The notes: generated by a model from the letters alone, not told the origin. A DNA stretch of 64,000 nt from an uncultured bacterium (GCA_963727715.1 CAVSGX010000004.1:8455-72454), one strand, 5' to 3'; numbered from the stretch's first letter, positions 36,655 to 58,616 are shown. Program-made: numbers and translations.

Positions 36655-38508
36655 TCAATGCTGTTCAGGTTTATTTTTATCAATTGTGTCGTCCACATTA
36701 AGCACTTTACGCAAAACCTCTTCCGGCACTTCTTTCCCCGACGCTGGCGCGGCTGGGGTTTGGACGATTTCTTTTTTAATTCCGGGTTTTATTTCCGTTT
36801 TTATTTCCGGTTTATTCATAACTTGAGACAGAGCATTTTTCAAACTGGAAATATTTTCCACTGTCGGATTTTTTTTATTTTCACTTGAATTCAGAGTAGA
36901 TAATGAAGCTGTTTGCGCAGTTGGAGGATTCTTATTTGAATCTACTGGTTTTCTCTGCGAAAAAGATTTGTTGCGCAAATCTTCGGTGGCTTTTATAAAA
37001 GCCAACTTATTAGGATCAGGGGTTGCAATTGTTGGAGTATTGTTCTGGTTGTTATATTTCTCTTTCTCACTGAAAGGCTTGTTAAAAATCGGACGATTGT
37101 CGACGCTTCGCTGAGGAGATGCCGGCGCAGATAAGGGCATAGGCGAAAAGCTGGAACGTCCTGTTCCTATATTTCCGTCGCCTTGCCCACCACCAGCCAT
37201 TTTGTCTCTTTGGGCCGATGTCCCCTCTTCATGCCATTTTTTTATTTCTGCCTCGACTTCGCCCCGTGGTCGGGTAAACTGTTTCCACGAGCTTTCCATA
37301 ACTTCTTTTTTGAATGAGACATCCGGCCTAGTAATCGGTGGCATAGTGACAGCTGAAAACGGCGCTGAAGAAACTTCATCGATCATCAATTTCAAATAAA
37401 TTTGGTATTTGCCAAGATTGACCAAATCTTCGGCGGTGAAAGTTGGAGCGAATTCTTTTTCCAAAACTTCAGCATCAAAAGCGCCGACTCGAAATGTGAC
37501 CATGGTGCCAACGTTGCCGAAAACGGCGTCGCGCACTTCCTCTTCCATTTGCTCAATGTACTGATGTGTGATGTTTAAACCTAATTTGTACTTGCGGGCT
37601 TCGGACAAAATGTCGGCAAAAGATTTGTTGGCGAAAGATTGAAACTCGTCCACATACAAATAAAAATTCGGCAGTTTGGCTAATTGCTCTTTGTTTTTGT
37701 CCGCTCGAGACATGGCCGCCAAGTATATTTTTGTGATAAGCATTGAACCAATGAGGTTGGCATTGCCCTCACCAACAAGCCCTTTGGACAAGTTGATGAG
37801 CAATATCTTTTTCTCATCCATAAAATCGCGAATGTCAAAAGATGATTTCGGCTGGCCGATTAAATTTCGGACAAGCGGGTTTGATGTGAATTGTCCGACT
37901 TTGTTTTGAATAGCCGGTGTGGCTTCGGCTGCGTATTTGTCGGTGTATTTGGCAAATTCCTCCGTCCAAAAAGTTTTGACCGATGGATCTTTGATGTTCT
38001 CCACCACTTTTTTGCGATACTCTTTGTCAGCTAACATTCGATTAACACCAAGAAGTGTGGCACCCGGATATTCCAAGAGCGCCAAAAGAGTGTTGTTTAA
38101 AATGTAAGCCATGCGAGCTGACCAAGCATCCACCCAGATTTTCTCAAACGTGGACATGAGGCCGTTGACCACCAGATGTCTTTTGTCCACACCAATATCT
38201 TCCAAGACATTGAAAGAAACTGGATGTTCCAAATCAAATGGCGCGAAATAAAGCACATCTTTGATGCGATTTTCCGGGATGTAATCCAGCAGTTTTTCGG
38301 CCATTGAACCGTGCGGATCTATGACGGCGATACCGTTGCCATTTTGAATATCCTGGATGGCCATATTTTCCAAAAGATTGGACTTGCCAACGCCGGTTTT
38401 GCCGATAACATAAACATGACGCAAGCGATCGCTTTCTTTGATACCAAAACGGATTTTTTTGTTGCGAGCGTCCGTTTCGGCAAAATATGTGATGGGGTTT
38501 GGGTCCAT
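36655..38508 (-). CDS. VirD4/TraD/TraG-like (FtsK/HerA-superfamily) P-loop ATPase with a low-complexity C-terminus
   Basis: HVYVIGKTGVGKSN Walker A, LYVDEFQSF Walker B, and the LGLNITHQY pattern of type IV coupling-protein-like ATPases. Confidence 0.6.
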   Translation of the reverse strand: MDPNPITYFAETDARNKKIRFGIKESDRLRHVYVIGKTGVGKSNLLENMAIQDIQNGNGIAVIDPHGSMAEKLLDYIPENRIKDVLYFAPFDLEHPVSFNVLEDIGVDKRHLVVNGLMSTFEKIWVDAWSARMAYILNNTLLALLEYPGATLLGVNRMLADKEYRKKVVENIKDPSVKTFWTEEFAKYTDKYAAEATPAIQNKVGQFTSNPLVRNLIGQPKSSFDIRDFMDEKKILLINLSKGLVGEGNANLIGSMLITKIYLAAMSRADKNKEQLAKLPNFYLYVDEFQSFANKSFADILSEARKYKLGLNITHQYIEQMEEEVRDAVFGNVGTMVTFRVGAFDAEVLEKEFAPTFTAEDLVNLGKYQIYLKLMIDEVSSAPFSAVTMPPITRPDVSFKKEVMESSWKQFTRPRGEVEAEIKKWHEEGTSAQRDKMAGGGQGDGNIGTGRSSFSPMPLSAPASPQRSVDNRPIFNKPFSEKEKYNNQNNTPTIATPDPNKLAFIKATEDLRNKSFSQRKPVDSNKNPPTAQTASLSTLNSSENKKNPTVENISSLKNALSQVMNKPEIKTEIKPGIKKEIVQTPAAPASGKEVPEEVLRKVLNVDDTIDKNKPEQH

Positions 38509-38594: not shown

Positions 38595-38660
38595 AAAAAT
38601 TCAAAATTCAAAAACAAAAGAAAAAACAAATCGACAAGAGACAAGCTACCTTTTTGGAAA
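38595..38660 (-). promoter_or_regulatory. Conserved 3' flank of a DGR variable repeat (copy A)
   Basis: aaaaattcaaaattcaaaaacaaaagaaaaaacaaatcgacaagagacaagctacctttttggaaa is identical to 40605-40670 and 43419-43484. Confidence 0.6.
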
Positions 38661-39650
38661 TCACAAGAACGAGCGGGAGAGGCGACCACCCAGAGGCGGA
38701 TGGGAACTGGACGGAGCATCGGCACGGACACCGAGCCGGGAACCGGCGGGGTTCCAATAGGCGCAGACGACACGAAAGGAAGATGGGGCGGTTTTGTCAG
38801 GGTTTGGCACTTTAGACCCGGGCAAAGCGGTCCAGTAGTATAGACCATCTTTCTCGTTTTTGGTGTCTATGTGCTTGCCTGTTTGTTCAAAGATTTTTCT
38901 TTGCAGGATGAGATAATCGGACAGAGTTAGAGATTGGTTCGGAGGCAAGGAGAGAAAGGTTTCAATCTTTTTGTTCAGAGTTTGTTTAAGCTCTGATTGT
39001 TGCCAGAGTTCTTGACTGTGGACTAGAACGATTCTTCTTTTTTTGTCTTCTATTACTCCTTCAAACCCGCCACCCGAGTTGAAATTGCTTCCGGTGTATG
39101 TTTCGTTGTATCCTTCCGACATTTTAGCGTTTAGGTCTGTCAGGTTTGGCAGAGTTTCCGGAATGAGCAGGATTGTGTCAAAACCGTGTTTTTCTATTTC
39201 TTCTCTGATTTGGTCAATGTTTCTTTCCCAGATGTTTTTCATCGTCTCGGAGAAGTCTTTCGGTCTGTCTATGGAGTGGGTTGTGTAAAAGGAAGTAAAG
39301 TATTCTATTTCTTTTTCAATATCTATGGTTATGGTTTCTTTCTTTTCTTCAGTGGTTGTTTTGCCGGTTTTTTCGTCTTTTGTCTCTTCGATATGTTTGT
39401 ATTCCACTTCTAGAGTTGTTGAGGATTTGCCTTCTATCTTTCTTTTGAGAGAACGGCATTGGGAGAGTGTTTCTTTGATTTTCAGGCTTAGTTCTTTCTG
39501 TTTCTCTGTATCTCCGCTCTCAATGGCTTTTAGGAGTTTATCTTTCATTTCTTCGGCCTGAGAGAGCAGGCCTTCCATTACGGTCAAGTCGGCCAGAGCT
39601 TGTTCTTTGGTTGGTGGAGAGTTTGGGATTTTGGGAGATTCGTGGGACAT
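38661..39650 (-). CDS. DGR target protein 1 (cytoplasmic, coiled-coil N-terminus, C-terminal variable CLec-like region)
   Basis: 329 aa. Identical to the 40671..41660 product except for the last 32 aa or so (VVCAYWNPAGSRLGVRADAPSSSHPPLGGRLSRSFL), which overlie the VR. Confidence 0.85.
   Translation of the reverse strand: MSHESPKIPNSPPTKEQALADLTVMEGLLSQAEEMKDKLLKAIESGDTEKQKELSLKIKETLSQCRSLKRKIEGKSSTTLEVEYKHIEETKDEKTGKTTTEEKKETITIDIEKEIEYFTSFYTTHSIDRPKDFSETMKNIWERNIDQIREEIEKHGFDTILLIPETLPNLTDLNAKMSEGYNETYTGSNFNSGGGFEGVIEDKKRRIVLVHSQELWQQSELKQTLNKKIETFLSLPPNQSLTLSDYLILQRKIFEQTGKHIDTKNEKDGLYYWTALPGSKVPNPDKTAPSSFRVVCAYWNPAGSRLGVRADAPSSSHPPLGGRLSRSFL
38664..38771 (-). repeat. DGR variable repeat VR-A
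   Basis: Aligns to the TR (43071-43177). By hand count it differs at 15 TR-adenine positions plus one non-A position (tgt>ggt). Confidence 0.85.
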
Positions 39651-39666
39651 AATGGATGGATGATAA

Positions 39667-40347
39667 TCAGTCTAATTTTATTAATTTCTTTGTCAGAACA
39701 GGAATTTCTTTTTGAAAAAAAGTTTTGACCGAATTCCAATCAGCGTCAAAAAAGATGACCGGCTCTGGATCGCTTTCGGCATCGTCAAAATAAACCATAC
39801 TTTTCAAGATATGGTGATAGTCGTGAGCCACAGACGGATACTGTCCCGGCAATCGTCTGATAATATTTTCCAGCGGTTCCACATTTTTGGCGCACCAGTA
39901 CAAATCAAAGAAATCTCTTTTTCTGCCTCTTTGCGAGCTGGCGATTATTTTCATCACGGCCACATCCGTTTTATTCAAAATTTTGACAAAACCGTATTCC
40001 AAAAATTTTTGTTTTGGAATAAAAAACGGATAAGCGATAAAACTGATTTTGGTGTCATACAATACGCCATATAAAGTGTTTGGTTCATCAATATCCGTGC
40101 TCCAATTTTCATTGCTTGCAAAACGAGATAACAGTTTCTTTGTTATAAAACTTTTTTCTGTGGTAAAAAAATCCAAATCAACAGATTTGCGATTGCCGGC
40201 CTGCAAAGCTAAGGCGGTGCCACCGGCCAGATACCAGCCTGATTCACTCAGCCATTCTTGGGTTGATAAAAAATCCAGAGCTGTTTTGGTTGATTTGGGT
40301 AAACATGAAAAGTTGATGATATTTAATTTTGAAGTGTCAGTGTCCAT
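39667..40347 (-). CDS. Nucleotidyltransferase AbiEii/AbiGii-like toxin family protein
   Basis: WYLAGGTALALQAGNRKSVDLDFFT is the family N-terminal signature. Confidence 0.65.
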   Translation of the reverse strand: MDTDTSKLNIINFSCLPKSTKTALDFLSTQEWLSESGWYLAGGTALALQAGNRKSVDLDFFTTEKSFITKKLLSRFASNENWSTDIDEPNTLYGVLYDTKISFIAYPFFIPKQKFLEYGFVKILNKTDVAVMKIIASSQRGRKRDFFDLYWCAKNVEPLENIIRRLPGQYPSVAHDYHHILKSMVYFDDAESDPEPVIFFDADWNSVKTFFQKEIPVLTKKLIKLD

Positions 40348-40547
40348 AATGCTTTTGTTCTTGGTCTCAAAGACCGTGATGCAGAAACAACTTTTCTCAA
40401 CAATGCCTTGTCATAAAAATTCCAAAGCCAGCGAACCTCATTATCCCTGCCAAAATCTAAAATTCTCTCAATTATATATTGAGCGTTTTTTTCAGTGTCA
40501 ATTCTGCTGACATCGGTGTCCCAAAACAAAGATTGTCTAAATGGCAT
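40323..40547 (-). CDS. Small partner protein of the AbiEii-like NTase (putative antitoxin-like)
   Basis: 74 aa. LFWDTDVSRIDTEKNAQYIIERILDFG pattern. Overlaps the NTase start by 25 nt, which suggests translational coupling. Confidence 0.5.
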   Translation of the reverse strand: MPFRQSLFWDTDVSRIDTEKNAQYIIERILDFGRDNEVRWLWNFYDKALLRKVVSASRSLRPRTKALWTLTLQN

Positions 40548-40670
40548 ACCTTCATTATATCAAATTTTGAGACAATATTCAACAAAAATCAAAATGCAAA
40601 AATAAAAAATTCAAAATTCAAAAACAAAAGAAAAAACAAATCGACAAGAGACAAGCTACCTTTTTGGAAA

Positions 40671-41660
40671 TCACAAGAACGAGCGGGAGAGGCGACCACC
40701 CAGAGGCGGATTGGAAATGGACGGATCATTGGCAACGACATTGAGCTGGGAACCGTCGGGGTACCAATGGGCGCAGACGACACGAAAGGAAGATGGGGCG
40801 GTTTTGTCAGGGTTTGGCACTTTAGACCCGGGCAAAGCGGTCCAGTAGTATAGACCATCTTTCTCGTTTTTGGTGTCTATGTGCTTGCCTGTTTGTTCAA
40901 AGATTTTTCTTTGCAGGATGAGATAATCGGACAGAGTTAGAGATTGGTTCGGAGGCAAGGAGAGAAAGGTTTCAATCTTTTTGTTCAGAGTTTGTTTAAG
41001 CTCTGATTGTTGCCAGAGTTCTTGACTGTGGACTAGAACGATTCTTCTTTTTTTGTCTTCTATTACTCCTTCAAACCCGCCACCCGAGTTGAAATTGCTT
41101 CCGGTGTATGTTTCGTTGTATCCTTCCGACATTTTAGCGTTTAGGTCTGTCAGGTTTGGCAGAGTTTCCGGAATGAGCAGGATTGTGTCAAAACCGTGTT
41201 TTTCTATTTCTTCTCTGATTTGGTCAATGTTTCTTTCCCAGATGTTTTTCATCGTCTCGGAGAAGTCTTTCGGTCTGTCTATGGAGTGGGTTGTGTAAAA
41301 GGAAGTAAAGTATTCTATTTCTTTTTCAATATCTATGGTTATGGTTTCTTTCTTTTCTTCAGTGGTTGTTTTGCCGGTTTTTTCGTCTTTTGTCTCTTCG
41401 ATATGTTTGTATTCCACTTCTAGAGTTGTTGAGGATTTGCCTTCTATCTTTCTTTTGAGAGAACGGCATTGGGAGAGTGTTTCTTTGATTTTCAGGCTTA
41501 GTTCTTTCTGTTTCTCTGTATCTCCGCTCTCAATGGCTTTTAGGAGTTTATCTTTCATTTCTTCGGCCTGAGAGAGCAGGCCTTCCATTACGGTCAAGTC
41601 GGCCAGAGCTTGTTCTTTGGTTGGTGGAGAGTTTGGGATTTTGGGAGATTCGTGGGACAT
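40671..41660 (-). CDS. DGR target protein 2 (paralog of target 1)
   Basis: 329 aa. C-terminus VVCAHWYPDGSQLNVVANDPSISNPPLGGRLSRSFL. Confidence 0.85.
   Translation of the reverse strand: MSHESPKIPNSPPTKEQALADLTVMEGLLSQAEEMKDKLLKAIESGDTEKQKELSLKIKETLSQCRSLKRKIEGKSSTTLEVEYKHIEETKDEKTGKTTTEEKKETITIDIEKEIEYFTSFYTTHSIDRPKDFSETMKNIWERNIDQIREEIEKHGFDTILLIPETLPNLTDLNAKMSEGYNETYTGSNFNSGGGFEGVIEDKKRRIVLVHSQELWQQSELKQTLNKKIETFLSLPPNQSLTLSDYLILQRKIFEQTGKHIDTKNEKDGLYYWTALPGSKVPNPDKTAPSSFRVVCAHWYPDGSQLNVVANDPSISNPPLGGRLSRSFL
40674..40781 (-). repeat. DGR variable repeat VR-B
   Basis: Differs from the TR at 9 adenine positions (hand count) plus the same tgt>ggt change. Confidence 0.85.
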
Positions 41661-41672
41661 GGAAGTATTCTA

Positions 41673-42700
41673 TCATGTTATAACAATATCATTCAATATT
41701 GAAGTCAGTTTGTTTTTTAATCCAAATGAATCGCAGTGTTTCAGTAAAGCAAAATAAGACTGAAAATTATTCTTGTTCATTCTTTCAAAAATTTTTTGCT
41801 TGGTTTTATCTCTCAATAAAAGACAATCTGGCAAAGTCAGAGATCCTAGAAAATCTACTCCCCATTTTAATTTTCTGATTGAGATTTTATCATCCGGGAT
41901 TTGCAGAAACAGTTTTGCCATAAATTTTTTAATTTCAACCAAACAAAACCCCAATCTTTTTTTATTTTTATTTACCAAAATAAAATCGTCGTTGTATCTT
42001 ATATAAAATCTGGCGTTTAATTTTTTCTTCACAAAATGGTCAAAATCGTTCAAATAAATGTTGGCGAAAATCTGGCTGGTGATGTTGCCGAGCGGGATGC
42101 TTTTGTCAGAGCCATGAAGCGAGCAAAAACTTTCTACTATTTTCCCCACTTCCAAAAAAATATTTTCATTTTTCACTTTTCTTTTGATAAATTTCAGCAG
42201 TAGGCGGTGGTTGACACTTTCAAAGTATTTTTTGACATCGCATTTTAAAATAAAAACATCCCCATTTTTTCTTTTCGCCAATCCATTGAAATATTGGAGA
42301 GTTTTGACGGCTTTATGCGTTCCTTTTCCGTCTCTGGATGAATAACGGCTTTATGCGTTCCTTTTCCGTCTCTGGATGAATATGAGTCGGCAATAAATGC
42401 CGGCTCAAATAGATTTTTCAAATAATCGGATATTATTTGATGAATAATTCTATCTTTAACTTCAGCTTTGTGAATATTTCTTTTCTTGTTGTCAGTAACA
42501 ATAAAATGCGAATACCCGCCATGGCGGTAAGTTTTGTTTTTCAGATCTCTGTGCAAATCAAAAATATTGTCTTCCAAATGTCTTTCAAAAATCATTACAT
42601 CCATCTTGGAGGACTTTCCCCGCCGAAATTTCCGCCAAGCTGAAAATATATTATCAAGACTGAATAATTCGTTATAATTTTTATGGAACAAGACGCTCAT
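41673..42700 (-). pseudogene. DGR reverse transcriptase, frame broken by a 38-bp tandem duplication
   Basis: Motifs SYSSRDGKGTHKAV, FILKCDVKKYFESVNH, IPLGNITSQIFANIYLN (DGR-type GxxxSQ) and YIRYNDDFILV (YxDD). Deleting one copy of 42307-42344 restores a 329-codon ORF. Confidence 0.85.
42307..42382. repeat. Perfect 38-bp tandem duplication inside the RT gene
   Basis: acggctttatgcgttccttttccgtctctggatgaata occurs twice in a row (42307-42344 and 42345-42382). Confidence 0.9.
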
Positions 42701-42718
42701 AAAATTGAAAAATTGGAA

Positions 42719-43057
42719 ATGCCTATTATGGCCAAACTCTTTATCATTTACGAACTGACGCACAAGCTTATTTTCAAATTGCCGAAATTTGAAAGATACA
42801 CTTTGGGTGAAAAAATTGAAAATATCATCTTGGAAACGATTGAAATAATTGTCATCGCCAATGGGACGAACAAATACGAAAAAGAAAAATATTTGCTCAA
42901 AGCCAATGCCAAAGTGGAAATGCTTAAGTTGCTTTTTCGCATCGTTTTGAACTGCCAAATCATTGATTTCAAAAAATATTTGGAGGCGGAAGGGTTGCTT
43001 CAAGAAATCGGCAAAATGGCGCAAGGTTGGATAAAATACACCAGAAACGCAAAATAG
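42719..43057 (+). CDS. avd: DGR accessory variability determinant (four-helix-bundle, 23S rRNA-IVS-protein family)
   Basis: MPIMAKLFIIYELTHKLIFKLPKFERYTLGEKIENIILETIEIIVIA...LLQEIGKMAQGWIKY matches the Avd/four-helix-bundle pattern. It is on the opposite strand to the RT, TR and targets. The start could be 42683, 42719 or 42728. Confidence 0.7.
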   Translation: MPIMAKLFIIYELTHKLIFKLPKFERYTLGEKIENIILETIEIIVIANGTNKYEKEKYLLKANAKVEMLKLLFRIVLNCQIIDFKKYLEAEGLLQEIGKMAQGWIKYTRNAK

Positions 43058-43070
43058 CTTTTGTATAAAG

Positions 43071-43177
43071 CAAGAACGGCGGGAGAGGCGACAACCCAGA
43101 TTCGGATTGGAATTGGACGGATCATTGGCATTGACATTGAGCTGGGAATTGTCGGGGTTCCAATTGGCGCAGACGAC
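43071..43177 (-). repeat. DGR template repeat (TR)
   Basis: Sense (minus) strand: gtcgtctgcgcc AAT tgg AAC ccc gAc AAT tcc cAg ctc AAT gtc AAT gcc AAT gAt ccg tcc AAT tcc AAT ccg AAT ctgggttgtcgcctctcccgc. It holds 21 adenines, mostly in AAT codons. All three VRs vary at these positions. Confidence 0.9.
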
Positions 43178-43409
43178 TGCGGTCGCCCCTCGATTAGCTT
43201 TGCGTCGTCATTTCCGTTTGGAAACAAGACTCTATTTATTAGGGGCTACTTCCCCCTGACGCAAAACTGCTGTTCTTGTGTTTTATTTCCACAAATCAAC
43301 GACTATTTGGTTTCTAAAATTCAGAAACCATCTTTCGCCGTCAATTAGCGCTTCGGCAAACCAACTCATCACTGATGGCTTACGAGCCGAAGCGGGCGAT
43401 TTTTGCTTC
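43178..43409 (-). other. Structured non-coding spacer between target 3 and the TR (candidate 5' part of the TR RNA)
   Basis: Nested stems: ttgcgtc..gacgcaa, gggg/cccc, tttcc/ggaaa, ggtttct/agaaacc and gcgcttcggc/gccgaagcg. A minus-strand TTGACG-17-AATTTT promoter-like signal is present. Confidence 0.4.
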
Positions 43410-43484
43410 GCAAAAATAAAAAATTCAAAATTCAAAAACAAAAGAAAAAACAAATCGACAAGAGACAAGCTACCTTTTTGGAAA

Positions 43485-45512
43485 TCACAAGAACGAGCGG
43501 GAGAGGCGACAACCCAGATTCGGATAGGAATAGGACGGATCATCGGCACCGACAACGAGCTGGGAATAGCCGGGGTCCCAATGGGCGCAGACGACGCGGA
43601 AACCGCCGGATGGATTTTTGACTGTTGAGCCGGGTAGCCATGTCCAACCGTCTTCATCCAAATGTTTGCCTGTTTGTTCAAAATATTGCTTTTGATACAA
43701 CAAATAATCTGTCAGAGACATTTTTTCACCTTGCGATATAAACTCCTCGGCTTTTTTATTCAGAGTTTTCTTCAGTTCCGAATGGTCTTTCAGATTTTGA
43801 GCGCTGTTTTTATGAATCAAAACGATTCTTCTTTTTTTGTCTTCTATTACTCCTTCAAACCCGCCACCCGAGTCGAAATTGCTTCCGGTGTATGTTTCGT
43901 TGTATCCTTCTGACATTTTTTTATGTATATCGGTTATGGTCAATCCTCCGGGCACAAGCAAAATCTCATCAAAACCATATTTTTCTACTTCTTGTTTTAT
44001 CTCGTCATAATTGTTCACCCATATATCCGCCATTTCTTCCGCAAATGATTCCGTCAATTCAATTTCGTGAGCTTTATAAAAAAGAAGAGAATCCTCAAGT
44101 TTTTTGTCAAAATTTATTTCTATTTTCTCTTTCTTTTCTTTGCCTTTCTCGTCCACGATTTTGTGTTCGGCAGAAACCACCGGTTCAAACGAACTGCCGG
44201 TCAATTCTCTTCTTTTACTTCTGAAAAATTTCTCCAAATCGGCTATTTCATTTTCAATCTTCTCTATCCCGTCCGCCGGACTTTCGGTTTTACCACCTTC
44301 AGGAATTGCCTCAGCAGACGCTTCTTTTTCTTCTTCGTTATTTTTCTTTTTTCTTTTCGTTCCTTTGCGTTTGGAATCTTTGGTTTCTATTTTGACTTCA
44401 ACCAATCGGATGATTTCTTCCAATTTTGTTCTGTCTTCGGCGCTTTCCAGTCTGTTGACATAATAATATTTCAGGGCTTTTTGAAAAGTTTCGCTGATGT
44501 CGCCATTGTAAAAACGCAAAACAAAATTTCTGACCCGCCTCGGCTCTTCGCGGTCGTCATAGGTGAAAACTTGTGGTTGATCTTCGGCGATTTGCCTGTT
44601 TTTCAAAAGTTCTTTGGCGGTTTTGTGAAATTCCTTGTATTTTTCCAAAATTTCGGCAATGCCTGGAATTTCCGAAAGTTGTTCCTGCGTCAAACCACCG
44701 GCGCCGGATAAAAACATATCATCAGGCAATTCGGCGGTTTTCTTTTCCAAACCGTTCTCTAAACCAAACAATGCACCAGTCGCTTGCTTAAAGGTCTCTT
44801 CCGGTAATTCATTTGGCATTTTTTTATAAACCCATCTGCGAAGCTGAGCTGGATCAAGTGGCTTTCTATCCAAATAACCGGCTCCCGGAGGATTCATAAA
44901 AGCGATGATTTTGGTTTTTTGTTTAGAAACTTTAACTGTTTCCGAAGCGTCTTCTGACAAAATGACATCGCTATCACGCTCCAGAGAATCCAAAACTTCA
45001 TGCAAACGAATCAAAATGTTCGGCGCCGATGAGTTGAATTCGTCCAAAACAATAATTTTGACTTTACCGTCTTCCTGTCGTAAACCGCTAGTTACTTTTC
45101 CGTCGGCGAAAATGTATTCCGGGTCTTCCGCATTATTTTTACGAGGATTTGGTATATATCGGCCCATCAAATCCTCCACATCCGTGGCACCGTTTAAGTT
45201 TATGTAATGAACTTCGTAGCCGAGCTCACTGGCCATTTTTCGCACCGTGGTGGTCTTACCAAAAGATGTTCCGCTTTCCACGGCAATAGGGTCGCCCATG
45301 GAAAACGACACGGCGATGTCACGTTGCAGTGGCAGAGCCACTTCGGTATCATTGGTGTAGTCCTTGTAATTTTCTCTTCTTGGCACAAATTGGCCATTTC
45401 TGTTTTTAGCTTTTTCCAGAGTAACACCCATATAAGAAACACTCCCGTCAGTTTCCATTATCGGCTCCAGTTTTGCTTCCGGATTGTTAAATTGTCCTTC
45501 TGGTGTTTTCAT
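43485..45512 (-). CDS. DGR target protein 3: AAA+ (MoxR/AAA_5-like) ATPase fused to the target C-terminal module
   Basis: 675 aa. GTSFGKTTTV Walker A, IIVLDEFNS Walker B. The C-terminal 230 aa or so is homologous to targets 1/2 (KMSEGYNETYTGSNF.SGGGFEGVIEDKKRRIVL). It ends VVCAHWDPGYSQLVVGADDPSYSYPNLGCRLSRSFL. Confidence 0.85.
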   Translation of the reverse strand: MKTPEGQFNNPEAKLEPIMETDGSVSYMGVTLEKAKNRNGQFVPRRENYKDYTNDTEVALPLQRDIAVSFSMGDPIAVESGTSFGKTTTVRKMASELGYEVHYINLNGATDVEDLMGRYIPNPRKNNAEDPEYIFADGKVTSGLRQEDGKVKIIVLDEFNSSAPNILIRLHEVLDSLERDSDVILSEDASETVKVSKQKTKIIAFMNPPGAGYLDRKPLDPAQLRRWVYKKMPNELPEETFKQATGALFGLENGLEKKTAELPDDMFLSGAGGLTQEQLSEIPGIAEILEKYKEFHKTAKELLKNRQIAEDQPQVFTYDDREEPRRVRNFVLRFYNGDISETFQKALKYYYVNRLESAEDRTKLEEIIRLVEVKIETKDSKRKGTKRKKKNNEEEKEASAEAIPEGGKTESPADGIEKIENEIADLEKFFRSKRRELTGSSFEPVVSAEHKIVDEKGKEKKEKIEINFDKKLEDSLLFYKAHEIELTESFAEEMADIWVNNYDEIKQEVEKYGFDEILLVPGGLTITDIHKKMSEGYNETYTGSNFDSGGGFEGVIEDKKRRIVLIHKNSAQNLKDHSELKKTLNKKAEEFISQGEKMSLTDYLLYQKQYFEQTGKHLDEDGWTWLPGSTVKNPSGGFRVVCAHWDPGYSQLVVGADDPSYSYPNLGCRLSRSFL
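43488..43595 (-). repeat. DGR variable repeat VR-C
   Basis: Differs from the TR at 11 positions, all TR adenines (hand count). Confidence 0.9.
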
Positions 45513-45515
45513 ATT

Positions 45516-45917
45516 TTATGAACGATAAACCGGCCCAACTTTGTCTATAATTTCAAAACTTCTTTCTTTCAATTTCGCCAAAACGCTTTCCGTAGCGACC
45601 AAAACCAAAACCTGACTTTGATAATCAGGTGAAAAAACTTTTGATTCATTTTTTTCTTTATCAAAAATCTCAACTTGACCTGTCGGATACTGCGCGACAA
45701 AATCATATAAGTCCTTCGGTAGATTTTCGTCCAAAACCAGATACATTTTTTGAAAACCAAAAAAATCAAAAACATTTTTTGATGTTTGAAATCCACTATC
45801 TTCAAAAAACTTGATAAAACCACCCATCTCGCTTTCATCCCGCGCCAAAACAAGTCCGACATCTTTTTGTCCTTTCAAGATATCCAGAAACTCATGCAGA
45901 CCTTCGTTTTTGTTCAT
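45516..45917 (-). CDS. Hypothetical protein between the vWA and AAA genes
   Basis: 133 aa, no recognisable motif. Tight spacing (stop at 45516, next start at 45512) suggests an operon. Confidence 0.5.
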   Translation of the reverse strand: MNKNEGLHEFLDILKGQKDVGLVLARDESEMGGFIKFFEDSGFQTSKNVFDFFGFQKMYLVLDENLPKDLYDFVAQYPTGQVEIFDKEKNESKVFSPDYQSQVLVLVATESVLAKLKERSFEIIDKVGPVYRS

Positions 45918-45956: not shown

Positions 45957-48242
45957 TCAACCAACAACTTCTTTCTCAAGTATTTCTGATATATCTTTTA
46001 TTATTTTGTCCACTTTTATATTATCGGATTTTAGCGGGTAATAAATAAGCTTTACACCGCCGGCTTTTTCGATTTTGCCTTTAATTTTTTGAAAATCATA
46101 TTTTGAGCCGGGATGTTTAGTGGATTCAGCTGGTCTGTCATCCGAAAAAACAATCATTATTTTGTTGTCTGTTTTTTGTTTTGCAAGTCTTGCCGAAGCG
46201 GTTTCCATAGCCCAACCAATGTCGGTTTCATTATGCTCATTTCCGCAATTTTTGCAACAACTATCTTCAACCTCTTTAAACATTCCTCCCATGTGTTCCC
46301 TGATTTTTTTTGACATTGGCTCTCCAAATTTTTGATACTCGTATATATCATCATTAAAACCGTTAATTTCAACGTTCAATCCTAGTTTGTTTAATGCTTC
46401 AGCCAGCACAACTTTTGCTTTGAAATCTTCTTCAATTTTTTTACGCATAGAACCAGATAAATCGTTTAGAATGGAAATTGAATATTCTTTTTCATCTGGT
46501 TTTTCTCTTTTTTGCCAAGCGTTGCTTTCTATTGGCGAAATGCGTCTGGCTTTTTCCTGAATCCTTGTTTTTATATCAATTCTTTTGCCTATTCTAAAGC
46601 CCTTTTTCCATCTTGTGGTTTGGGTGTCAACAAATATCTGTCTTAGTTTATTTTCCAATTCATCAATCAGCGACGAAACTTCTCGTCGGTGCTTTTCATA
46701 AATATTTTCGTCTTTATTGACTTCTCTTTTTAATCTTTCTTTGTATATTCTCAATCCTTCCAAATCAAGAGGTTCTTTTCTTAAAGTTCCGGTTCTGACC
46801 GGAGCGCCGCCTTGATTTTGATTGTTTATTTCAACCCCTGGCAAATTTTCCGGCGGTTCTGGATTTTTTCTTTCTGCTTTTTCCTCCGGATTTTCAGTCA
46901 ATTTGCCTTCCATTTCTTCGTTTAGTTTGTCTTCAAATTCCTTCAGCGCTTTTTCGGCTCTGTCGGCCAGCTCTTTTTTCACATCTTCCGGAAGCGAGTC
47001 GACATAATCCCTTATTTTTTGTTTTATTTCGTCGGAAAGGTCGTTCAGGTTTATTGTCCTCGCACCGATATCGTCTAGCGTCTGTGGTTGTTCATTGCCG
47101 GTGTTGTCTTCGTGTGGAGTCGGCTTGTTTGTGATTTTATCTTCTCCCTGCCCACCTGTTGACATTGGTTTGATTTTTTCTTTCTCTTTTTTTGCTTCAT
47201 CAATAGCTTTGTCAATAGCATTTTCCAACGTTTTCTTTTCTTCTTCGGTTAATTTGTCTTCCAAATCTTTTGGCAGTTTTGATTTTTTTTCATTTTTTTT
47301 ATCTTCACTTTCTCCTTCCTGATTTCCGTTATCTTTTTGTCCATCACCACCTTCCTTCCCATTTTCTCTTTCTTGCTCTTTTTTCATTTCTTCCATCATC
47401 TTTTTCATCACATCTTTCAACACTTCTTCCATTTTCTCATCCTCTTTATCTGCTTCAACCAGTTTTTTAAATTCTGGCCAAATTTCTTCCAGATTTATTT
47501 CATACGACACTTTGGCGTATTCTTTTATTTTTTCTTCACTTTCATCCGCTTCCTCTCGCGACGGATATCGCCACCAAGAATCCTGAGCTGATTTCAGTGT
47601 GGCTAAAACAACAGCTTTGACTTCTTCGGGCAAATCTTCCGAAATTTCAAAATTCTGTCCCTGTTTTTCACGAAACCATTGTCTAATATATTCATACCCC
47701 GCTTGCACAAAACGCGGTTGGAAACCCAGTTTTTCGGTAGCTTCTTTCTTTTCTTTTTCTCTTTTGGCAAAAAAATCATCCCAAGCAAATTTTATATTTT
47801 CATCGTATTTCGGATAACTCTCGGAAACAAAGTTGTCGTTTCTGGGATCTTCAATGAAATTCATCATAGCTGAAAAGCCCGGTTGTCGCCATGTTTCAAT
47901 CGGAATAAAATCTGTTCTGGAAACTCGTCTATGTCCTCCTTCGTGACAAATTAAATATCTCAATAATTCAATTGGCTCCGTCAGCAGAGTTTTCGGGTCA
48001 ACTCTGATGACATTTTTTTGAAAATCCCAATGCCAGCCAGCGCCTGGTTGGTTTAGTTCTATCGGCATCTCAAAATCTTTGCCAATAAAATAAGCCAGAG
48101 ATGACAAAATATTTTTCTTGCGCAGAATTTCTTTTTGTTCTTCTTCGTTAAATCGCTTCAAGATTTCCTCTTCTGGATTTTGCCGGAGAGAATCGTAGGT
48201 TTGTTCGTTTTGATTGAATTTTGGTCCTTCCATAATTTGCAA
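45957..48242 (-). CDS. vWA-domain protein with N-terminal HExxH metallopeptidase-like domain (DUF2201-like MoxR partner)
   Basis: 761 aa. LICHEGGHRR (HExxH), a long E/K-rich linker, and a C-terminal vWA with MIDAS LNDLSGSM and ..IMIVFSDD. Confidence 0.7.
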   Translation of the reverse strand: MQIMEGPKFNQNEQTYDSLRQNPEEEILKRFNEEEQKEILRKKNILSSLAYFIGKDFEMPIELNQPGAGWHWDFQKNVIRVDPKTLLTEPIELLRYLICHEGGHRRVSRTDFIPIETWRQPGFSAMMNFIEDPRNDNFVSESYPKYDENIKFAWDDFFAKREKEKKEATEKLGFQPRFVQAGYEYIRQWFREKQGQNFEISEDLPEEVKAVVLATLKSAQDSWWRYPSREEADESEEKIKEYAKVSYEINLEEIWPEFKKLVEADKEDEKMEEVLKDVMKKMMEEMKKEQERENGKEGGDGQKDNGNQEGESEDKKNEKKSKLPKDLEDKLTEEEKKTLENAIDKAIDEAKKEKEKIKPMSTGGQGEDKITNKPTPHEDNTGNEQPQTLDDIGARTINLNDLSDEIKQKIRDYVDSLPEDVKKELADRAEKALKEFEDKLNEEMEGKLTENPEEKAERKNPEPPENLPGVEINNQNQGGAPVRTGTLRKEPLDLEGLRIYKERLKREVNKDENIYEKHRREVSSLIDELENKLRQIFVDTQTTRWKKGFRIGKRIDIKTRIQEKARRISPIESNAWQKREKPDEKEYSISILNDLSGSMRKKIEEDFKAKVVLAEALNKLGLNVEINGFNDDIYEYQKFGEPMSKKIREHMGGMFKEVEDSCCKNCGNEHNETDIGWAMETASARLAKQKTDNKIMIVFSDDRPAESTKHPGSKYDFQKIKGKIEKAGGVKLIYYPLKSDNIKVDKIIKDISEILEKEVVG

Positions 48243-54296: not shown

Positions 54297-54353
54297 TTGG
54301 AGGACACACCTCCATTAAATAAAATATCACAATAAAATAATAAAGTCAAATTG

Positions 54354-54427
54354 TGCGCGTGCCAGGACTCGAACCTGGGACCTCGTCATTATCAGTGACG
54401 TGCTCTAGCCACCTGAGCTACACGCGC
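54354..54427 (-). tRNA. tRNA-Ile (anticodon GAU), CCA not encoded
   Basis: Minus sense: GCGCGTG TAGCTCAGGTGGCTAGAGCA CGTCA CTGATAA TGACG AGGTC CCAGG TTCGAGT CCTGG CACGCGC A. All four arms pair. Confidence 0.9.
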
Positions 54428-55590: not shown

Positions 55591-56087
55591 CCAAAAATTA
55601 GTGCTGGATCTCCCAGGGTCATTTATATTTCTGTTCCAAACATCCGAATCGAGATTTTCGATAAGATTTATCGTGTGCTTCCTTCTGACTCACCGCAGAA
55701 GTCGCACATCTCTTTTTTTTGATTCGGCTGCTCTTTGCTACTAGGATCCTTCAGTCCAGTCATTGCTGATTGTGGACCTACCCGTTCGCTATTTTCACAC
55801 TCCTGTGAAAAGTTGGATTTGAACCAACTAGATATATAAACTGCCTGGCGCATTTTATTCTGAGTACAAGACTTGAGAACGTATTCACCGCGGTATGTCT
55901 GACCCGCGATTACTAGCAATTCCAACTTCATGGGGTCGAGTTTCAGCCCCCAATCTGAACTGGGGCGACTTTTCTAAGGATTGGCTCAGGGTTACCCCGT
56001 CGCAACCTGTTGTAGTCGCCATTGTATTATGTGTGTAGCCCAAGGTATCAAAGGGACATGCTGATCTGGCGTCATCCTCGCCTTCCT

Positions 56088-56197
56088 CCCAGCTCCAGTT
56101 GCGCAAGATGAACGAACTCGGTTAAGACCGAATACGGACATCGATGTTTGCACAGAGAGACATCTACTTATGATGTTCTTGTGCAACTGGAGCTGGG
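56088..56197 (-). other. Expanded helix-40 hairpin of 16S (about 110 nt)
   Basis: cccagctccagttgcgcaaga (56088-56108) pairs with tcttgtgcaactggagctggg (56177-56197). This replaces the short CCAGU-GAUA-AACUGG helix of E. coli. Confidence 0.65.
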
Positions 56198-56425
56198 CAG
56201 TCTCGCCTGATACTTATAACAGACAACGAGGGTTGCGTTCGTTACCCCACTTAAGGGAACAATTCAAATCACGAACTGACGACGACCATGCATCACCTGC
56301 CTAACTGTCCTTGTGGGACCGCAAACGTTTCTGCTTGCATTCAGTTAGGTTTCAAACCTTGGTAAGATTCTTCGTTTATCATCGAATTAAACCACATAAT
56401 CCACTGCTTGTGCAAGTCCCCGTCT

Positions 56426-56457
<32 letters not shown>

Positions 56458-56641
56458 ACCCAGGCGCTTGACTTAACGCGTTAGCTACGCCACGCAGAGG
56501 GTCGATACTCCGCATAGCTAGTCAAGATCGTTTAGGGCGTGGACTACTGGGGTCTTAATGTTACTTCAAAATTTTGGGAAATTTTGAGGCACAACATTTC
56601 TGTTGTACTCTGCATGTTGCCATGCAGTTCGGACTATATCT

Positions 56642-57403
56642 TTATCTGTATGTATTCCACTTAGCTTTTTTCTTTTCATATTCTGCTATTATGACAGATT
56701 CTGAAAAATTACTAAGAGAAACCATTTCAGATATCCAGCGTTCTTGAAATTGAGAGTTTTTATATAGAAGAATTGCTTTGGATAACATGCTCGATACTGG
56801 TATGTATGGCAGTATGATACGCAAGAATTTTTTTAATTCTTCTTGTGACCTAATCCATAACCGCCAGTATTGTTCTTGCTTCCCATCTTGCTTACGCCCG
56901 ACGGGGGCAACAATGGCACGAACATCCCAAACAACTTTAAGATAGCGAGCTAGCATTTCGACTGATTGTTTTGAAAAACCATCAGTACAAAACACACCTT
57001 TTCTGGCGCCGTAACCAATAAGCGAACCGTCATCACACCACCAAACGGCGAGTGATAACGCTGTCATTTGATTAAGCCACCTACGCTCTATAAGCAATTT
57101 ATTTTGTTTGTGAGTTAAATGATGAAGTTCTGTAAGAGATGAAGTTCGCCTACTGGCAAATCTCCATTTTTTGTTCTTACTGTATCCATCAGGTTCCTGC
57201 ACAAACACACTGCTATCTCCTGCTATCTCTTTGAGAGCTTGCGCTTTCCATAAGAGATAATCTTTCTGCATTTCCGAATGACGAATTTGTAAATTCGCAT
57301 TGAAATAATTTTTTTGGATTTTTAGCGAGCCGTCTCCAAGGATTGAACCGAAGATAATAGCTTTCGCTTCATCCGACAAAGGCACATATTTCGTATCATG
57401 CAT
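56642..57403 (-). CDS. LAGLIDADG homing endonuclease (double-motif)
   Basis: 253 aa. IIFGSILGDGSL and LAVWWCDDGSL motifs. Confidence 0.85.
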   Translation of the reverse strand: MHDTKYVPLSDEAKAIIFGSILGDGSLKIQKNYFNANLQIRHSEMQKDYLLWKAQALKEIAGDSSVFVQEPDGYSKNKKWRFASRRTSSLTELHHLTHKQNKLLIERRWLNQMTALSLAVWWCDDGSLIGYGARKGVFCTDGFSKQSVEMLARYLKVVWDVRAIVAPVGRKQDGKQEQYWRLWIRSQEELKKFLRIILPYIPVSSMLSKAILLYKNSQFQERWISEMVSLSNFSESVIIAEYEKKKAKWNTYR

Positions 57404-57509
57404 ATAATTTTAAGTTAATTGCACGACGACAGAATAGCACCAACTATCTTACTCAATTTCATAGTCTCTACGGGGTTTCTAGCACTAATTTTTGGAGTCA
57501 AGCTTTGAC

Positions 57510-57538
57510 TTGACAAGATTCATTTTATGATTTAACAT
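57510..57538 (+). promoter_or_regulatory. Promoter-like signal in E2
   Basis: TTGACA (57510-57515), 17 nt, TAACAT (57533-57538). The -35 box overlaps the hairpin gtcaag..cttgac. Confidence 0.4.
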
Positions 57539-57559
57539 CAATTCCAGGAGATTAACTCG

Positions 57560-57679
57560 ATGGAATTTATTATGATATTGATCTGTTTAGGAGTTTTTTG
57601 TTTGATCACAGATATGATGATAACTGTTGCTATTGATATCTGTGAATGGATCGATCATTACCTGCACCGGCTTTTATAG
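57560..57679 (+). CDS. 39-aa hydrophobic peptide (type-I-toxin-like), candidate
   Basis: AGGAG (57546-57550), 9 nt, then ATG. MEFIMILICLGVFCLITDMMITVAIDICEWIDHYLHRLL, TAG stop. Confidence 0.4.
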   Translation: MEFIMILICLGVFCLITDMMITVAIDICEWIDHYLHRLL

Positions 57680-57697
57680 CGGTGCAGTTTTCTTTTT
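57662..57697 (+). terminator. Intrinsic terminator of the E2 cassette
   Basis: ctgcaccg..cggtgcag stem overlapping the stop codon, then ttttcttttt. Confidence 0.55.
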
Positions 57698-58616
57698 CCA
57701 AAAATTAGTGCTAGAAACTTCCCTCGGGGTTGTCCATACGAAATCAGTAAATTTCATATTGTATGGAGTTTCCCCGATATAGCTAGATTACAATTCTATG
57801 TCACCATAGAAAAGAGACACCTTCGTCCTATATTTTATTAGCGGGACTGGATTATCTAATCCCATTCGCTACCCACGCTTTCGTGTTTCAGTGTCAGGAG
57901 TGGCCCAATGTGCTGCCTTCGCTTTCGGTGTTCCCCATGATATCAACGGATTTCACCCCTACTCCATGAGTTCCACACATCCCTGCCATCCTCTAGTCGT
58001 GCCGTTTCGCTCGCACTTCCGGGGTTAAGCCCCGGGTTTTAACAAGCGACTAACACAACCACCTACACACCCTTTACGCCCAATAATTCCGGATAACGCT
58101 CGGGGCACTCGTATTACCGCTGCTGCTGGCACGAGTTTAGCAACCCCTTATTCTTGAGGTACTATCAATAAACTTTCTCCCTCACAAAAGATGTTTACGA
58201 CCCAGAGGGTCTTCATCCATCACGCGGCGTCGCTCGATCAGGCTTTCGCCCATTGTCGAATATTCTCGGCTGCTGCCACCCGTAGGTGTATGGACCGTCT
58301 CTCAGTTCCATCGGTGGGGGCCAAGCTCTCACTCCCCCTACGCGTCATAGCCTTGGTAGGCCGTTACCCTACCAACTAGCTGATACGACGCAGACTTTTC
58401 CTTTAGCGATAAATCTTTCCTCCGAAGAGAATATCAAGTATTACCTAATCTTTCGACTAGCTATTCCTGACTAAAGGGTAAATCTCTGCGCATTATTACC
58501 TCGTTCGCCACTGTCCTTGCGGACCGTTTGACTTGCATGCCTTATCCACGCCGCCAGCGTTCATCCTGAGCTAGGATCAAACTCTTAATAAAGATTTATT
58601 AAGATCTATCTTTTAA

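Follow-up and report, generated by a model that had tools for sequence, protein, structure and literature searches.

The window analysed here is a 64,000-nucleotide stretch of DNA from an uncultured bacterium (GCA_963727715.1, CAVSGX010000004.1:8455-72454; positions are counted from its first letter). It contains a diversity-generating retroelement (DGR) with three target genes. The locus is a standard "B3" DGR of the candidate phyla radiation (CPR), a known kind of system and a clean example of it. Two of the targets form a pair of direct repeats that differ only inside the variable repeat (VR), and this pair is our subject. The order of the locus is a long AAA_5 target with VR3, the template repeat (TR), a reversed avd gene, the reverse transcriptase (RT) gene, a short target with VR2, a DUF6922/AbiEii gene pair, and a second short target with VR1. 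The main features are listed below.

38595-39650, minus strand: repeat copy 1, RT-distal; 329-amino-acid target CDS 38661-39650 (protein P0017) plus a 66-nt 3' flank
38673-38771, minus strand: VR1, 99-nt TR-aligned core; variable A sites 38695-38759; 16 differences from the TR, 15 at adenines
39667-40347, minus strand: AbiEii-family nucleotidyltransferase gene, predicted toxin, 226 amino acids (PF08843, 3e-14; AbiEii by PADLOC)
40323-40547, minus strand: DUF6922 gene, presumed antitoxin partner, 74 amino acids, with a promoter-like site upstream
40605-41660, minus strand: repeat copy 2, RT-proximal; 329-amino-acid target CDS 40671-41660 (protein P0001) plus a 66-nt 3' flank
40683-40781, minus strand: VR2; variable A sites 40705-40769; 10 differences from the TR, 9 at adenines
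41673-42700, minus strand: DGR RT gene, in two open reading frames (ORFs) by a frameshift (RVT_1, 2.2e-22 on the repaired ORF)
42683-43057, plus strand: avd accessory gene, 124 amino acids, between TR and RT (Pfam PF22296 bAvd, 1.4e-17, 64.5 bits, cutoff 40)
43071-43177, minus strand: TR; core 43079-43177 with 21 adenines in 99 nt; 43071-43078 resembles IMH*, the TR counterpart of the initiation of mutagenic homing (IMH) site
43497-43595, minus strand: VR3, at the 3' end of target 3; 11 differences from the TR, 11 at adenines
43485-45512, minus strand: target 3, 675 amino acids; AAA_5 (MoxR/midasin-type) ATPase at the N-terminus, C-terminal domain a paralogue of the 329-amino-acid proteins

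Two target copies and one template repeat

The initial annotation had described two copies that looked identical by eye, from the start codon to 66 nt past the stop codon, with different A-derived substitutions in their VRs. Direct alignment of 38595-39650 with 40605-41660 (minus strand, 1,056 bp each, offset 2,010 bp) bears this out. There are 12 mismatches, at 38702, 38707, 38716, 38720, 38725, 38726, 38731, 38732, 38737, 38746, 38753 and 38759. All of them fall within the VR interval named in that annotation, and the count outside 38664-38771 and 40674-40781 is 0. Besides these 12 sites no change is seen in 1,044 bp. Outside the 99-nt VR core 0 of 957 positions differ, a figure that is safe to within a few single-nucleotide polymorphisms (SNPs), and the copy number may be two or more. 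In the public record both proteins are separate 329-amino-acid products of one 204,555-bp contig. An exact look-up of the two proteins in the contig index gave no hit; the cluster table lists both.

The limits of the repeat are also as first described. It runs from the A of the ATG (39650 and 41660, minus strand) to 66 nt beyond the stop codon (38661-38663 and 40671-40673). Just beyond both ends, at the same offset, identity is ~25%, the random level, and neither end can be extended by an exact match. The copy 2 ATG lies 12 nt past the RT stop codon and the copy 1 ATG 16 nt past the AbiEii stop codon. The 5' boundary falls at the ATG because the sequences upstream are the ends of unrelated genes. 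This coincidence is no rule, since in a sister species (L001, described below) the repeat starts 9 nt 5' of the ATG. A retro-duplication through an mRNA, which the ATG boundary and a promoter-like -10 near the copy 2 ATG might recall, was set aside in view of the L001 boundary; it had no other support.

With the 3' end of copy 1 as query, four related segments were found in the window, namely VR1, VR2, VR3 and the non-coding 43071-43177. The non-coding segment is the TR, because it has an A at every position where the other three vary. The initial annotation had not named target 3 with its VR and its full 66-nt flank, the non-adenine change common to VR1 and VR2, the gene pair that separates the copies, or the frameshift in the RT. 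All 21 adenines of its core are at codon positions 1 or 2. The TR codons with an A are nine AAT, one AAC, GAC, GAT and CAG (AAY makes up 10 of 12 A-bearing codons). The TR lacks codons that could become stops and has a potential of ~2.5e12 protein variants. Each VR ends 9 nt ahead of the target stop codon. The comparison of IMH with IMH* gives 22 A-free, GC-rich nucleotides, then a 1-nt indel (VR CTCCCGCTCG versus TR CTCCCGC-CG), then divergence. This indel separates every VR from the TR in the window and in L001, and the TR, which carries the deletion, has its IMH*-like 43071-43078 set off from the core by it.

The differences between VR1 and VR2 are confined to TR adenines (12 of 12, with 21 A in 99 nt; P ~8e-23 for random placement over 1,056 bp). 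They produce 10 amino-acid changes between residues 298 and 317, and all are at codon positions 1 or 2. One TR/VR difference is not at an adenine. It is a T to G change at TR position 84 (38687 and 40697), common to VR1 and VR2, that replaces Cys by Gly; the Cys is kept in most relatives (LGCRLSRSF). The site is within the A-free, GC-rich final 22 nt of the TR/VR match, just ahead of the 1-nt indel. It would be left unrepaired by homing because it lies in these last 22 nt, where the transfer of cDNA information is expected to stop. The IMH is the expected 3' limit of information transfer (PMC5758913), and non-A substitutions have often been reported in CPR DGRs (Wu et al. 2018, PMC5758913). 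The comparisons show that a single TR supplies the information of the VRs, the adenine-only differences being the signature of adenine-mutagenic reverse transcription and replacement of the VR by cDNA. The earlier proposal that mutagenic homing produced the VR differences is supported by the presence of a TR, an RT and Avd together with these adenine-only differences.

VR1 and VR2 are both mutated at 8 sites and have the same base at 4 of them (GG at TR 27-28, CC at TR 75-76), which fits independent draws (P=0.26).

Relatives, gene conversion and the age of the duplication

We consider it probable, though well short of certain, that the copies are paralogous targets of one chromosomal CPR DGR that arose by an old duplication, are homogenised by recombination and have had their VRs re-diversified by the DGR. 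In the proposed sequence of events, one TR would serve paralogous targets in a CPR/Patescibacteria chromosome. The duplication would predate the split of the lineages, and recombination between the copies would keep them identical. After the last homogenisation the DGR would have rewritten the VR of at least one copy, giving the 10 amino-acid differences.

Relatives were found by a locus search with a five-sequence alignment of the C-terminal domain (C-domain) that covered the GTDB representatives, to which the genome of the window does not itself belong. They are Parcubacteria/Taylorbacteria metagenome-assembled genomes (MAGs). L001, from a MAG of another species, has the order TR, reversed avd, RT, target, DUF6922, AbiEii, target. 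Its amino-acid identity to the window is 63% for RT, 77% for Avd, 73% for AbiEii, 80% for DUF6922 and ~59% for the target. The junction from the RT end to the ATG aligns between window and L001, as does the junction from the flank through TATAAT to DUF6922. The L001 copies are 100% identical over 1,012 bp, VR included. L012, an independent assembly from JGI, has the same layout of two targets around the toxin-antitoxin (TA) pair. L011, from another sample, differs from L001 over 2,417 bp by 12 changes in the VR and 0 elsewhere. The VR is changed far faster by the DGR than the rest is changed by point mutation.

L052 represents a third lineage, with DNA identities to the window of ~80% in the TA region and ~72% in the target. 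It contains a 1,867-bp circular k-mer path that joins the target 3' flank to the TA pair and on to the target (1-30 = 1868-1897). L012 has a circular k-mer path with a period of 1,946 bp, corresponding to target plus TA (1-127 = 1947-2073). These loops fit a tandem pair and also fit higher-order tandem arrays or excised circles. The target-TA-target layout is thus found in two other lineages (L001/L011/L012 and L052) at ~72-80% DNA identity, and their copies are likewise identical or collapsed into one assembly loop.

In a C-domain tree built without the VR, the long upstream targets form a group across genomes. In L022 and L025 the copies sort by position, "up" with "up" and "down" with "down", whereas the pairs of the window and of L001 each cluster within their own genome. 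Paralogues are 100% identical within the window and within L001, against ~59% (amino acid) and ~72% (nucleotide) between the lineages. Across the family, identity between paralogues of one locus ranges from 76 to 100%. In our reading the order RT, target, DUF6922/AbiEii, target probably goes back to an ancestor shared by three or more diverged lineages. The duplication is probably old, with the copies kept identical by gene conversion, by unequal crossing-over or by both.

Gene conversion has left a mark elsewhere in the same genes, in the following segment.

39027-39125, minus strand (41037-41135 in copy 2): 99-nt gene-conversion tract, shared with target 3 at 43821-43919

In this tract the short copies match target 3 at 97 of 99 nt, against ~55% identity in the surrounding coding sequence. 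The ratio of identical to synonymously different codons is 31:1 in the tract and 29:41 outside (Fisher p=1.8e-8). Compared with L001, these tract codons do show synonymous differences. The derived residues of the tract (GGG, IED-KKRR) are specific to this genome and occur in both paralogue types, so either type could have been the donor. Gene conversion is, on the evidence of this tract, active in this genome.

The initial annotation had offered a very recent duplication and gene conversion sparing the VR as alternatives. Recent duplication loses ground and conversion gains it, in view of the identical copies in two other lineages and the 99-nt tract. Conversion probably does not spare the VR, because the L001 copies have identical VRs; the DGR would re-diversify the VR faster than the rest changes.

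The TA pair lies between the direct repeats. Chromosomal TA modules that stabilise adjacent DNA are known. The DUF6922 gene overlaps the AbiEii gene by 25 nt, and the pair is kept in many CPR contigs. It is of the AbiE type (type IV), with DUF6922 as partner instead of the canonical AbiEi, and its toxin role is predicted. As a speculation, the pair would penalise recombinational collapse of the repeats, because a pop-out would delete the antitoxin gene. The whole target-TA-target arrangement may even be a conserved, selected design in which two receptor slots share a homogenised scaffold, the TA pair guards the repeats and DGR rewriting of the ~65-bp adenine-templated part of the VR outpaces conversion; we regard this as a tentative and somewhat doubtful extension. 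AbiEii had been tried as a synteny probe and was rejected, the module being too widespread for its mere presence to be diagnostic.

Several points weigh against an old, homogenised duplication or limit what can be drawn from it. No relative above 90% average nucleotide identity (ANI) was found with which to date the duplication. The DUF6922/AbiEii pair is very common in CPR (2,459 matches) and occurs at 75% identity in an unrelated context, so synteny is weaker evidence of common descent, and independent TA insertions in separate lineages are possible. The TA lock has no direct support. The agreement of VR1 and VR2 at 4 of 8 sites is also compatible with partial homing or shared ancestry; because it is compatible with independent draws as well, the data fit the rewriting of one copy or of both. 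The RT gene is broken, which speaks against current DGR activity. A de Bruijn assembly represents a perfect repeat of 891 bp as a single edge that is passed through twice, and the zero differences may be partly a product of construction; some few real SNPs may have been lost through bubble popping. Both L012 and L052 are themselves circular k-mer paths, and the first copy of L001 ends exactly at a contig end.

The strongest rival is a very recent, lineage-specific duplication, in which a copy of the target, reaching from its ATG through its 3' element, was placed just after AbiEii, or the TA pair was inserted between fresh copies, the similar layouts in L001 and L052 having arisen independently. 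Zero differences outside the VR would follow directly. The family range of paralogue identity implies duplications of differing ages, and the TA module is widespread in other contexts too. The 16-nt spacer of copy 1 is also unlike the 12-nt spacer of copy 2, whereas the L001 copies share 9 nt upstream of the ATG. The same event would nevertheless be needed in three lineages with a DNA divergence of 20-28%, each time in the same position with respect to RT and TA and each time with identical copies. Gene conversion is, moreover, demonstrable in the genome of the window. We consider this rival unlikely.

Less probable still is an assembly effect, in which the tandem is real and the identity stems from a collapsed repeat edge. 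In its strong form there would be one copy plus a circular or strain-variant unit of target and TA, and two VR variants of the population would have been assigned to two places. The circular k-mer paths of L012 and L052, with their period of target plus TA, are of the kind that such an effect would leave. In L001 the three copies agree completely, VR included, and one adjoins a contig end. The two matching Logan contigs, both from run ERR11594402, end exactly at the repeat ends. One of them, L048, consists of the TA region and exactly 30 nt of repeat on each side, so both TA-repeat junctions are present in the reads. Against such an effect, four distinct junctions are found (RT to repeat, repeat to TA, TA to repeat, and repeat to the downstream gene). 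Each VR is 107 nt from its unique 3' flank, so that k-mers or read pairs can place it. Assemblies that come from different studies and species agree in this topology, and a 2-kb circle without replication functions would not persist. The false tandem of collapsed strains, which the initial annotation had named as its possible refutation, is likewise unlikely, given that synteny is kept in independent assemblies and that the Logan contigs reach exactly k-1 nt into the repeats before they break off.

Ordinary mutation with diversifying selection, instead of the retroelement, is negligible as a source of the VR differences, for nothing specific beyond the currently broken RT gene speaks for it, and against it stand the 12 of 12 differences at the 21 TR adenines (P ~8e-23), their codon positions 1 or 2, the 1,044 unchanged bp and the same pattern between sister-species samples (L011 versus L001).

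Reverse transcriptase and candidate cis elements

The broken RT gene contains the following duplication.

42307-42382, no strand assigned: perfect 38-bp x 2 tandem duplication within the RT gene; 38 mod 3 = 2, which shifts the frame

The frame of the RT shifts after ...GKGTHKAV, and the assembled genotype therefore has no intact RT, the 38-bp duplication splitting the ORF. Removal of one 38-bp unit gives a 329-amino-acid RT with LGNITSQ and YNDD, which we take to be DGR-typical RT motifs. The repaired RT is collinear with the intact 327-amino-acid RT of L001. The RTs of the relatives are intact, and the 38-bp duplication is absent from them. The Logan contig L049, of the same run as L048, begins on exactly the last 30 nt of the 38-bp unit, which is how a k=31 graph behaves where a duplication junction is real. 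In the assembled genotype the DGR has probably ceased to work. Barring a mixed population or a reversible duplication, the VR differences are older than the RT break. The duplication could mark a dead RT, a population variant or a reversible switch; one possibility is an off-switch for hypermutation that is reversed by slippage or recombination. A broken RT is not unusual, since Wu et al. discarded over half of their candidate DGRs for such defects (PMC5758913). A clean TR/VR signature beside a frameshifted RT does not mean that a DGR is active now.

The avd gene scores 5e-19 and 68.5 bits against NCBIfam DivGenRetAVD NF033474, under the cutoff of 80. Its reversed orientation is kept in the relatives.

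Three further features may belong to the cis elements of the DGR.

38595-38660, minus strand: shared post-stop element, copy 1; holds GGTAGCTTGTCTCTTG (38635-38650) and a T-rich tract
40596-40670 and 43410-43484, minus strand: equivalents of the post-stop element at copy 2 and target 3, with the motif at 40645-40660 and 43459-43474
43343-43392, minus strand: conserved two-helix stem-loop between target 3 and the TR (CTTCGGY..GTAWRR..helix..YRCCGAAG)

All three targets of the window have the same 66 nt beyond the stop codon, and the flanks of copy 2 and target 3 share 9 nt beyond what copy 1 has. Of 39 distinct target flanks in the family, 27 contain the motif, (GG)TAGCTTGTAGCTTG with a T-rich tract behind it, where 0.14 would be expected. 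For the target 3' flanks in L001-L047 it may also be written GGTAGCTTGT(A/C)(G/T)CTTG plus the T-rich tract. In the window it occurs only at the three targets. The flanks are identical among paralogues of one genome even where their coding regions are only 76-92% identical. Because the element is common to the three targets and family-wide, the 3' boundary of the repeat is best read as the end of a DGR cis element of the whole family and not as a random breakpoint. The element is probably a target-recognition element of an IMH-plus kind and is put forward as a candidate. Within the shared 66-nt flank no hairpin or cruciform, that is, no GC-rich inverted repeat downstream of the IMH, was found; a hairpin downstream of the VR is present in only 34% of DGRs (PMC5758913). 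A complement of the motif, as expected for pairing between RNA and target, was not found near the TR.

In 20 loci (L001 1040, L003 7888, L018 1646, L022 10693, L032 8060, L035 5824, L041 4569 and others) the stem-loop is found in the stretch that separates the upstream target from the TR. Its cells are 94% paired, versus 22-51% in slid controls, and compensatory changes are found in 8 of 12 pairs. It had no match in Rfam. It is probably the 5' part of the TR RNA.

Promoter-like sites were also observed. TTGAAT-18-TAGAAT, within 41667-41696 (minus strand), ends 7 nt ahead of the copy 2 ATG, and its counterpart in L001 is TGATAAAAT. TTGAAT-17-TATAAT (40554-40582, minus strand) precedes DUF6922. 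The arrangement suggests a possibly leaderless start of copy 2, and copy 1 may be co-transcribed with the TA pair.

Target proteins, genomic context and known systems

The model of the full-length short target has a predicted local distance difference test (pLDDT) score of 88.8. It consists of an N-terminal helical hairpin, a beta-hairpin and an alpha/beta C-domain, and the variable residues are predicted on two strands of the C-domain and their loops. A structure search with the C-domain gave no match among solved or viral structures. A C-type-lectin (CLec/FGE-sulfatase) fold, on which DGR variable proteins of the Mtd/TvpA type display their VR, thus gains no support here, and Wu et al. 2018 likewise leave these VR classes unassigned. 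A domain scan of the target identified no signal peptide or further domain. The C-terminal variable segment presumably binds a ligand. The surrounding features are listed below.

45516-45917, minus strand: 133-amino-acid protein, upstream partner of target 3, conserved beside long targets in relatives
45957-48242, minus strand: 761-amino-acid vWA-domain protein, upstream partner of target 3, conserved beside long targets in relatives
54353-54427: tRNA-Ile
55812-58592, minus strand: 16S rRNA gene with a ~1.1-kb insertion (56669-57761) that encodes a LAGLIDADG endonuclease (ORF 56642-57403)

The trio of AAA_5 target, 133-amino-acid protein and vWA protein is conserved in L003, L019, L032/33, L039 and L042. 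It resembles the MoxR-vWA "ternary conflict systems" with DGR-diversified sensors. Downstream of copy 1 (36655-38508, minus strand) is a gene for a 617-amino-acid VirD4/TraG/HerA-like ATPase whose C-terminal tail is long and of low complexity; the gene is not kept next to the L001 DGR. The window is chromosomal CPR DNA, with pyruvate kinase, SecDF and glycosyltransferases besides the interrupted 16S rRNA gene and tRNA-Ile. A 16S insertion with a LAGLIDADG endonuclease is typical of CPR bacteria. One Parcubacteria MAG (bin-552, CAJBMK01; L004-L008) has at least six target C-domain paralogues on five contigs, many at contig ends. Its target family is much larger and probably fragments the assembly.

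Wu et al. 2018 (PMC5758913) report architecture B3, the order TR-(avd)-RT, for 90% of CPR DGRs. CPR-type B3 DGRs with several target genes were also described by Paul et al. 2017, as cited in PMC5758913. The present locus has in common with them the reversed avd between TR and RT, the VR at the extreme 3' end of the targets, the AAY-rich TR, and the IMH/IMH* mismatch after a GC-rich segment. Also in common are the lack of a GC-rich hairpin behind the VR, a lack seen in 66% of DGRs, the service of three targets by one TR, and an occasional non-A substitution. It differs in the two targets that are identical outside the VR and flank a TA pair, and in the RT with a 38-bp duplication. The conserved post-stop motif and the stem-loop were not found described in the papers searched.

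Target 3, with its AAA_5 domain, can be likened by description to the "UVR4" CPR targets with a Midasin/AAA ATPase, whose VR fold is without assignment too (Wu et al. 2018, PMC5758913). It shares the adjoining vWA protein and small partner with the DGR targets of MoxR-vWA "ternary conflict systems" (Dore et al. 2024, PMC10907252). The variable domain belongs to the vWA protein in PB-PSB1 (Dore et al. 2024, PMC10907252), whereas here the ATPase is fused to it. Both UVR4 and the MoxR-vWA systems differ from the short 329-amino-acid paralogues, which have a helical hairpin N-terminus and no ATPase. DGRs with several VRs that arose by target duplication (Schillinger et al. 2012, PMC3521204) likewise have paralogues with distinct VRs whose departures from the TR are confined to adenines. 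The examples in the part of that paper drawn on here are 41-72% identical, against 100% outside the VR in the present pair. There they are attributed to independent, continuing diversification, and homogenisation is not invoked in that part.

The present pair may be compared with other bacterial paralogues. Concerted evolution by gene conversion is known from rRNA operons and tuf genes, for example. Set beside these, the targets show the same greater closeness of paralogues within a genome than of orthologues between genomes, and short mosaic tracts. The difference is that here a retroelement continually rewrites ~65 bp of the homogenised unit. Our search of the DGR literature found no paper that pairs a diversity-generating retroelement with concerted evolution. 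What is added here is evidence that DGR targets on either side of a conserved TA insert evolve in concert, together with the post-stop element, the stem-loop upstream of the TR and a freshly broken RT.

For the B3 DGRs, the dominant type in CPR, the post-stop motif and the stem-loop are candidate target-recognition and RNA elements that can be tested. To our knowledge the mechanism of these B3 DGRs has not been worked out. The copy pair serves as an internal control, in which the DGR wrote at least one VR after the scaffolds were last identical while the rest of the gene remained unchanged. If the reading drawn from several species is true, DGR target families would evolve in concert, the identity of paralogues would be unusable for dating duplications, and gene conversion would compete with hypermutation over the content of the VR.

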